Of a DNA stretch of 64,000 bases, positions 7,861 through 64,000 are shown one piece after another. The stretch is taken from the NCBI GenBank assembly GCA_004524445.1, contig SDNP01000007.1, positions 33,141 to 97,140 on the forward strand, written 5' to 3'. The number at the start of each line of letters is the position of its first letter. The first letter of the stretch is position 1. Below the pieces are notes generated by a model, which was given only the letters and a program-made list of their open reading frames with translations, was not told the origin of the DNA and did no database searches. Source of the DNA: Candidatus Thorarchaeota archaeon (GTDB lineage: Archaea; Asgardarchaeota; Thorarchaeia; Thorarchaeales; Thorarchaeaceae). The position numbers and the translations under genes were made by a program.

Positions 7861-7970
7861 GGGCCCGTGGCATAGACTGGTTATTGCACCGCTCTGATAT
7901 GCGGGCGAGAGTCATAATCGCCCCCTCCGAGAGGCGGGGGCCGAGTGTTCAAATCACTCCGGGCCCACCA
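7861..7970 (+). tRNA. tRNA-Ile(GAU) with 32-nt intron at 37/38 (7900-7931)
   Basis: Acceptor GGGCCCG/CGGGCCC plus ACCA; anticodon GAT at 7896-7898; T-arm GAGTG-TTCAAAT-CACTC; BHB-like junctions [CTGA]TA|T and [TCCG]AG|A. Confidence 0.9.
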
Positions 7971-57296: not shown

Positions 57297-57405
57297 TGGT
57301 GGACCGGGCGAGATTTGAATTCGCGCCAAGCGTCTCTTAGAGACACAAGGTCTCGCGACCTTCTCGATGCGAACGAGACGATCTACCGGACTAATCTACC
57401 GGCCC
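57297..57405 (-). tRNA. tRNA-Ala(CGC) with 32-nt intron in the T-arm at 53/54 (57320-57351)
   Basis: Acceptor GGGCCGG/CCGGTCC (G3:U70) plus ACCA; anticodon arm TCTCG-TTCGCAT-CGAGA; junctions [CGCG]AG|A and [CGCG]AA|T. Confidence 0.9.
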
Positions 57406-61947: not shown

Positions 61948-63139
61948 TTACTCCACGGGGCAAGATTGCTTCGCGTCCAACGGTGTCATGTCGGATGCTA
62001 TTGGCAATTGCCAAGCGATGATGACAAATGATTTCCAGACGCGAGTACAAAATGCGGACGTGAGATAGACTGGCGCACGAGTGCCAGAATCCCCTCAGGT
62101 CTAAGATATGCTCAACAGTGTGCAGGTAGTATTGGGTAAGACATCCCGTCTAACCTCGTCATGCCTGTACTTCATCAAGTTTAATGTGTGCTTTAGTAAT
62201 GTGTACAATTTGCCGACTCTAGCATCGGCAGCAGACCCTTGCCGGTTGTGTACATGGTAAGATCAACTCTAGTTGATCCTGCTAGAGGACACTGCTATCG
62301 GCTTGGGGTTAAGACATGCAAGTGTAACGAACTCACATCCGAGTTCGTCGCAAACGGCTCAGTAGTGTCGTTAACCTACCCTGTAGAGGCGGAAAACGCC
62401 GGGAAACTGGCGGTAATTCGCCATAGGAGCATTGTTCTGGAAATGATATTGCTCTCAAATGGGTGCTCTAGGTATGTAGAGCTCACCGCTGCAGGACGGG
62501 ACGGCAATGGATCATACTTGTAAGTGGGGTAATTGCCCACTTAGGTTATGACCCGCGCGGGCGATGTAAGTCGTGGCCCGGAGAAGGGAACTGAGACAAG
62601 GTCCCTAGCCCCACGGGGCGCAGCAGTTACGAAACCTCACCAATGCGCGAAAGCGTGAGTGGGCCAAGCCGAGTGACGGGAGATAATTCCGTCTGTGGCG
62701 GTACCGTAGTATGGTCCGCTAGAAAGGAGAGGGCAAGGCTGGTGCCAGCCGCCGCGGTAAAACCAGCTCTTCGAGTGGTGTCCATGATTATTGAGCTTAA
62801 AGCGTTCGTAGCCGGTTTAGTAGGTCCCTGCTTAAATCCGGCCGCCTAACGGTCGGCCTGGTAGGGATACCGCTTTACTTGGGGATGGGAGACGGTGACG
62901 GTATTCCAGAGGTAGGGGTGAAATCCTATGATCTCTGGAGGACCACCAGTGGCGTAGGCGGTCGCCGAGAACATGCCCGACGGTGAGGGACGAAACCCAG
63001 GGGAGCGAATCGGATTAGATACCCGAGTAGTCCTGGGCGTAAACCATGCCCGCTAAGTGTTGCATTGGCCACGAGCCATTGCGGTGCTGTAGCAAAAGCG
63101 ATAAGCGGGCCGCTTGGGAAGTACGGTCGCAAGACTGAA

Positions 63140-63208
<69 letters not shown>

Positions 63209-63613
63209 GCTTGCGGTTTAATTGGACTCAACGCCGGAAATCTTACCTGCCCAGACAGCCGAATGAGAGCCAGGTTGATGACCTTGCTCGACGAGCTGAG
63301 AGCTGGTGCATGGCCATCGTAAATTCGTGCCGTGAGGTATCAGCTTAAGTGCTGCAACGAATGAGATCCCTGCCACCTAATTGCCAGCCGGGGGCTTCGG
63401 CCCTGCCGGGGCACATTAGGGGGACCGCCATCGAGAAGATGGAGGAAGGTGGGGGCCACGGTAGGTCAGTATGCCGCGATATGGGCAGGGCCACACGCGT
63501 GCTACAATGGCCGGGACAATGTGTTACAACGCCGAGAGGCGAAGTCAATCACTAAACCCGGTCGTAGTCGGAATCGGGGGTTGGAACTCACCCCCGTGAA
63601 CCTGGAATCCCTA

Positions 63614-63643
63614 TCATCTGTAGACTCCCTATAGATGGGGAAA
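63614..63643 (+). other. 16S intron 2 (30 nt, after about 1346)
   Basis: Removal restores GGAATCCCTAGTA; hairpin CATCTGTAG/CTATAGATG; [TCCC]TA|T and [GGGA]AA|G. Confidence 0.9.
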
Positions 63644-63683
63644 GTATCCGCGTGTCACTAACGCGCGGAGAATACGTCCCTGC

Positions 63684-63713
63684 CGGCGCCGAGATTACCT
63701 CTGTGCCGGGGAA
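63684..63713 (+). other. 16S intron 3 (30 nt, after about 1386)
   Basis: Removal restores GTCCCTGCTTCTTGCACAC; [CCCT]GC|C and [GGGG]AA|T. Confidence 0.88.
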
Positions 63714-63816
63714 TTCTTGCACACACCGCCCGTCGCTCCATGCGAGCGGGTTTGGGGTGAGGCTGTGTCCATTGGGCGCAGACGAATCTTGGGCTCGCAA
63801 GTAGGGAGAAGTCGTA

Positions 63817-63846
63817 ACTGAGTTACGCTTCGTGACTTGGCGATCA
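63817..63846 (+). other. 16S intron 4 (30 nt, after about 1499)
   Basis: Removal restores GAAGTCGTAACAAGG; hairpin CTGAGTTACG/CGTGACTTGG; [GTCG]TA|A and [CGAT]CA|A. Confidence 0.9.
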
Positions 63847-63878
63847 ACAAGGTATCCGTAGCGGAAGCTGCGGATGGA

Positions 63879-63910
63879 AGAAGGTGAGAGTCATTCTCGT
63901 CTTCCATTAT
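63879..63910 (+). other. 16S intron 5 (32 nt, after about 1531)
   Basis: Removal restores TGGATCACCTCCT; hairpin GAAGGTGAGA/TCTCGTCTTC; [GATG]GA|A and [CATT]AT|T. Confidence 0.9.
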
Positions 63911-64000
63911 TCACCTCCTAAGACTTTTTGTCTCTAAGAGGCAAAAGCAGTAGAAGTGCGGGTATGACGGGTTAGCGGTGCAACGTAGGTTGCTCCTGAA

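Follow-up and report, generated by a model that had tools for sequence, protein, structure and literature searches.

Introns that lack open reading frames, are related in sequence and occupy unrelated sites are known from tRNA genes of the Thermoproteales, where intron transposition was proposed by Fujishima et al. (2010, as cited in PMC4090602 and 10.64898/2026.10.13.758758). As summarised in these two sources, the transposed groups are at least 70% identical, are found among tRNA genes, need to form a BHB motif at the new site, and are thought to have moved at the DNA level. In the 16S rRNA genes of Thermoproteales, Jay and Inskeep (2015; PMC4496867) described short (<50 nt) hairpin introns with BHB motifs, listing 13 loci, and their account has these introns spread when a homing endonuclease close by drives co-conversion. 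In Asgard archaea, tRNA genes hold many non-canonical BHB introns, which were gained repeatedly (PMC11291895; 10.64898/2026.10.13.758758). [quoted passage not shown] Its main text makes no mention of rRNA, 16S or Thorarchaeia, and rRNA donors are therefore untouched there. No paper on intron cores common to Asgard tRNA and rRNA genes was found in a literature search that covered subscription journals thinly.

The window analysed in this study is a stretch of 64,000 nt from a Candidatus Thorarchaeota archaeon (contig SDNP01000007.1). The order is taken to be Thorarchaeales, since the 16S end of the relative G043 is identical to that on a named Ca. Thorarchaeota contig (L128). It contains a tRNA-Ile(GAU) gene (7861..7970, + strand; predicted by ARAGORN and Rfam) and a stand-alone 16S rRNA gene with five mini-introns (62266..63919, + strand; Rfam RF01959 and alignment to an intronless relative). 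The tRNA gene is interrupted at the canonical position 37/38 by a 32-nt intron (7900..7931, + strand). The 16S rRNA gene carries 30-nt introns on the + strand at sites ~908 (63140..63169), ~1346 (63614..63643), ~1387 (63684..63713) and ~1499 (63817..63846), those at ~908, ~1387 and ~1499 being defined by alignment to an intronless relative. The last of the five is 32 nt long (63879..63910, + strand) and lies between GGA and the anti-Shine-Dalgarno tail that ends the 16S (63911-63919, + strand), which it adjoins. We take its site to be about 1531/1532 in E. coli numbering, assigned by motif. A search of the whole genome with ARAGORN and Rfam found one tRNA-Ile(GAU) gene and one exon copy in the assembly. 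The 16S rRNA gene is the sole copy and is unlinked from 23S rRNA, of which none is assembled in this genome (completeness 90%). The contig ends 90 nt past the 1531 intron and 81 nt past the anti-Shine-Dalgarno tail, at the place where the repeat arrays of relatives start.

Both 32-mers are single-hairpin BHB introns. The stem from 2:26 to 9:19 is common to them; in the tRNA-Ile intron it carries a 9-nt open loop, and in the 16S-1531 intron it continues to 11:17 and a 5-nt loop. In each of them a 4-bp splice helix involving nt 27-30 lies between two 3-nt bulges, with all four pairs formed in the 16S intron and three of four in the tRNA-Ile intron. Excision of either intron restores a canonical RNA, and intronless alleles are present in relatives, one of which (G079) has a tRNA-Ile gene with near-identical exons. 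The genome encodes splicing machinery, namely two PF01974 endonuclease genes (two subunits) and one PF01139 gene (RtcB). Both elements are passive BHB mini-introns, and from their anatomy and established archaeal biochemistry we infer excision by the splicing endonuclease of the host and ligation by RtcB. Contigs from public RNA runs barely cover the 1531 site and mix organisms, and a joined end at 63613 may represent either spliced RNA or an intronless relative. A public DNA run contains a strain similar to G076 without two of the five 16S introns.

The 16S introns resemble those of Jay and Inskeep, as far as that account describes them, in being small hairpin introns of less than 50 nt without an open reading frame, with the BHB motif kept, at conserved rRNA sites. 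They differ in their Asgard host, in their near-fixed length of 30-32 nt and in that one of them stands directly before the anti-Shine-Dalgarno tail. At site 908, putative homing-endonuclease introns occur beside the small ones in some relatives as long inserts, as in Thermoproteales 16S genes. Introns of 740-900 nt were observed at 16S site 908 (L023, L027 and L029) and in 23S rRNA (L342 and L346), at sites where other genomes hold introns of 30-47 nt. Co-conversion by a homing endonuclease, as proposed for the Thermoproteales introns, would be unable to carry an intron core into a tRNA gene.

For comparison, introns were collected from the 16S, 23S and tRNA genes of relatives, giving 203 sequences at 59 sites, with nine genomes sampled broadly. 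A BHB-score filter was applied to this set, from which some introns are missing, its tRNA positions are approximate, and order-wide counts are taken over kin genomes, which are not independent. A preliminary description of the window had considered the tRNA-Ile and 16S-1531 introns homologous, noting that both are 32 nt long, align without gaps at 18 of 32 positions and have GAGAGTCAT at the same offset (nt 8-16; 7907..7915 and 63886..63894, both + strand). All of these observations were reproduced, and the identity also lies above that of shuffled hairpins, with P=6.5e-5 in a mononucleotide shuffle and P<=1.5e-5 in a hairpin-preserving one. Among real introns of the order, 18/32 identity is not exceptional: 56% is attained by 3.5% of 2684 equal-length cross-site pairs, and two other intron pairs of the same genome match or exceed it (19/30 and 18/32). 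Such values are commonplace, since every one of these introns is close to 30 nt long and has a biased tip.

The distribution of the identical positions is more informative than their number. The 9-nt in-register run is the longest, and the sole run of nine, among the 153 intron pairs of this genome; runs of this length occur in 28 of 11,776 pairs order-wide, and their probability under a length-class null is about 1e-4. Arm and loop together are identical at 12 of 15 positions, for which P is about 1.2e-4 per pair and, given position-specific composition, 0.018 such pairs are expected in the genome. Since the 9-mer is present 44 times in the genome, only its position carries information. The claim of homology is upheld in part, in that kinship of the hairpin cores is somewhat favoured by the evidence. 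With the tip fixed, the basal stem of the pair reaches just p=0.06, so that a swap directly between the tRNA-Ile and 16S genes would go beyond these data. Part of the match can be explained by a selected tip.

Both introns belong to one hairpin subtype of 31-33 nt with a purine-rich 5' arm and a GAGA-GUCA(U)/UUCG tip, which was found at 16S-1531, tRNA-Ile 37/38, tRNA-Lys(UUU) 43/44 and one 23S site; cross-site intron families in relatives, on which the preliminary description had made its proposal depend, thus exist. At intron nt 9-15, these four of the 59 sites hold the word AGAGTCA, against a chance of about 1e-4 per intron even under the length-class null. It is carried by 16 of the 31 distinct alleles of the 16S-1531 family (repeat copies included), 8 of 21 at tRNA-Lys(UUU) 43/44 and one of three at the 23S site, as well as at tRNA-Ile 37/38. 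A second tip state, GATTCG, is found at all four of these sites and at seven of the 59 overall. The first 16 nt of the Lys43 consensus equal the 16S-1531 consensus at 13 positions, and both differences that fall in the stem remain paired. When columns were permuted, identity of arm 2-9 to 16S-1531 gave p=0.008 for Ile37 and 0.009 for Lys43, which rank third and first among 58 sites; for the family arm 2-7 the value was p=0.064, and the 23S member has the tip alone in common (p 0.2-0.6).

Words resembling these tips, or C/D boxes, were also met in introns of other kinds. Four 23S introns of 144-285 nt at reference site ~2587 (L334, L338, L339 and L341) contain a tip-like GATTCG word and box C-/D-like words near their ends, and are possibly guide-RNA-bearing. 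In G000, the anticodon introns of Leu and Ser tRNAs have a common GGGGTCAT word together with TGA words, again C/D-like, and multi-intron tRNAs at C40:25160-25297, C33:114676-114813 and C33:120180-120299 include several miscalled by ARAGORN.

On the scale of the order, cross-site identity is highest at nt 10-16, and the stem is at background. About 0.8 of the sites have U at position 13, and an A-Y-U-Y-C loop is present at 13 of the 35 sites having 30-nt introns. Within one site the stem turns over faster than the tip, and tip types interconvert. Stem identity between different sites showed no excess over the 59 sites of the order (79 observed, 77 expected; Mantel r=0.018, p=0.26), stem likeness was not predicted by tip likeness over all site pairs, and a general order-wide signal of whole-intron copying was sought and none found; this null result agrees with the low copying rate in the Asgard preprint. 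Because stems show no excess over permuted controls and turn over faster than tips, most cross-site likeness in the order is ascribed to a common design, probably selected, with a few families alone arguing for descent.

The tRNA-Ile 37/38 alleles provide one such case. The intron is patchy, being present in 11 of 87 genomes, and its alleles form five mutually unrelated groups, the one of the window comprising G000, G076, G077 and G078. For each of the nine alleles tested, 16S-1531 is among the four best of 58 sites. Against that family, scores are 8-11 for the window's group and 17 for the allele of G021, where the within-family median is 11; against other Ile37 groups both score 5 or less. 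The window's group and the G021 allele are thus nearer to 16S-1531 than to any other Ile37 group; the allele of G008 is nearer to Lys43. Aligned with a single gap, the core of the G021 allele is identical to that of a 16S-1531 allele at 21 of about 26 positions, which is tied for the top of 1711 site pairs and gives p=0.002 with the tip fixed, a value expected 0.3 times among the roughly 170 introns tested. It scores 12-15 against the several 16S-intron copies of its own genome and is missing from five congeners. In the window's group, the loop-adjacent pair G10/A18 of the present intron corresponds to A10/G18 in G077, and G10 is therefore not surely ancestral. Taken together, the family data lend moderate support to what may be a common descent of the hairpin core.

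Compared with the transposed groups of Thermoproteales, at least as these are described in the sources cited, the Ile/16S pair is similar in that short, ORF-less BHB introns of related sequence reside on unrelated host genes, at four sites, with a patchy distribution in kin. It differs in joining a tRNA gene with an rRNA gene, in likeness of the core only, in an identity of 56% where the groups reach at least 70%, a level attained here only by other pairs such as 16S-1346/Met43, and in splice helices that do not re-form at the other site. The pair thus resembles a transposed intron group yet falls short of one in identity and in helix compatibility.

This last difference bears directly on the route proposed in the preliminary description, in which the same element moved whole between the tRNA and the rRNA, for example by reverse splicing, a process that would be followed by reverse transcription. 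The equal length and register of the two introns fit such a transfer, and the Ile intron forms three of four helix pairs on the 16S exon once its 3' end is shifted by two bases. In an in-register swap, however, the 16S intron forms none of the four pairs on the Ile exon and the Ile intron forms one of four on the 16S exon, whereas at least three of four are formed by 156 of 157 native introns, in a set filtered for BHB score. Positions 27-30 do differ, as had been pointed out, but the difference is not the harmless detail expected from pairing with different exons, as it blocks splice-helix pairing on a swap. The tRNA-Ile and 16S genes are, moreover, both essential and single-copy, their introns are 56% identical, and a reverse transcriptase was not found in this 90% complete genome and is present in 3 of 47 genomes of the order. 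Transfer of the whole intron between these two genes is thus highly improbable. A different pair is compatible with it: introns of the 16S-1346 and tRNA-Met 43/44 families are up to 24/30 identical (80%, across genomes; p=0.001 with the tip fixed) and keep three of four helix pairs both ways on a swap, with pairing judged by eye. It was singled out as the top one among many pairs, and its two best alleles are in different genomes (L660, and the tRNA-Met L387 of G008), but it is a better candidate for whole-intron exchange between tRNA and rRNA than Ile/16S-1531, and the best in the set. Within the 16S gene itself, a 29-nt intron at site ~1375 (L023 in G075) is identical over an in-register run of 14 nt to one of the 1531-family alleles, itself 30 nt long, and the 1531 helix makes three of four pairs at the ~1375 site, indicating a possible move within 16S.

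Convergence would dispense with any transfer: one mini-intron design of about 30 nt with an 8-9 bp stem, and few tips selected by a loop-binding protein or by processing, would arise from separate origins. The frequent A-Y-U-Y-C loop and U13, the background level of stem identity and the lack of predictive value of tip likeness for stem likeness all speak for it, as do the incompatible Ile and 16S splice helices and the 23S member with its tip alone in common; tips conserved within and across sites, with types that interconvert, indicate that tips can converge. On the other hand, other 32-nt families bear other tips, so that length does not dictate this one; tRNA-Met 43/44 and tRNA-Lys 43/44 have the same site and helix and different cores, so that the target does not set the core; and the matches of the G021 Ile37 and Lys43 introns extend through the stem, in keeping with the high ranks of the Ile37 and Lys43 arms. 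Convergence is accordingly a strong rival, though one that falls short of being probable. Chance likeness of two hairpins among many could be argued from the 3.5% of cross-site pairs that reach 56% and from the pair having been picked after the fact, but the small expected number of such pairs in the genome, the encounter of the same tip at two further sites (0.005 expected) and the position of the 16S family near the top for all nine Ile37 alleles largely refute it and leave it scarcely credible. The tRNA-Ile intron might also have arisen by tandem duplication of the T-arm in its 3' exon and then decayed: its gapped score against that exon, 20 (z=2.4), approaches the 22 obtained with the 16S intron. 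The orthologous allele of G078 scores just 10, however, and G078 and G077 keep the tip although their T-arm differs. Introns are in general unlike their own flanks (mean z 0.1), and the first stem bases are no copy of the exon end (0.29-0.30); local duplication as a general origin of introns was rejected, and for the tRNA-Ile intron this origin is close to negligible.

The reading preferred here, to which we give about an even chance (probability roughly 0.5), is that intron cores are occasionally copied between loci at the DNA level, probably for the most part from the multi-copy 16S 3' end, with splice ends fitted to the target. As the splice helices are incompatible on a swap, the moving unit, if the cores are related, is nt 2-26. 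This hairpin core would be copied in a conversion-like or template-switch event, and intron nt 1 and the last six bases would be set by the target exon or selected to fit it. After arrival, stems may drift with compensation while selection keeps the tip. The 16S 3' end, repeated with the 1531 intron inside it, would be the likelier donor because several repeats per genome carry this intron in many relatives; donor, direction and any enzyme involved are putative. Homology arms of the length needed for ordinary conversion are absent, and no near-identical recent copy of a core was found in the comparison set.

A unit made up of the final 15-35 nt of 16S, the 1531 intron, the anti-Shine-Dalgarno sequence and a trailer hairpin recurs from two to four or more times in many relatives. 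The repeats have one orientation and lie between passenger genes (PIN toxins, VapB antitoxins, DUF1801/YdeI) in a cassette-like arrangement (L061, L062-L063, L064, L065, L066, L067-L068, L069, L070, L071, L072, L076, L077 and L078). At L065, L070, L071 and L072 the true 16S is without the intron and distal copies contain it, and the 16S-end copies of L076 are intronless. No array is assembled in the present genome, where the contig ends soon after 16S. The trailer hairpin of this unit (63921..63947, + strand) has a counterpart in the window: over 63921-63940 it equals the 32-nt T-arm intron of tRNA-Ala(CGC) (57320..57351, - strand) and its flank at 17 of 20 nt, including a 12-mer present nowhere else in the genome. 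This match, a second one that involves the core alone, gives p=0.0007, post hoc, and scores 14 against 12-13 in order-wide controls. More tentatively, and with rather low confidence, the 16S 3' end, as the junction repeat of cassette arrays in Thorarchaeales, might be a standing donor of both 1531 and trailer cores to tRNA and rRNA genes, with splice ends that would be made by the target. Other insertions near the 16S 3' end were also observed: L026 (G003) has an 89-nt insert in the loop of helix 45 with three tandem hairpins of ~30 nt, two of them like the 1499-site family, and in L195, whose 16S end is of bacterial type, site 1531 is likewise occupied by a hairpin insert of 30 nt.

For the organism, the position of the 16S-1531 intron means that splicing is needed to rebuild the anti-Shine-Dalgarno end, and the intron interrupts the 3' primer region of full-length 16S work. 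A core common to tRNA and rRNA introns with incompatible splice ends points either to the core as the moving unit or to a loop-binding factor. The sharing of cores between rRNA and tRNA genes speaks to the question of how ORF-less archaeal introns arrive at their sites. If the 16S 3' end were indeed a standing donor, introns could be gained along a route from rRNA to tRNA genes, which would explain their arrival in Asgard archaea.
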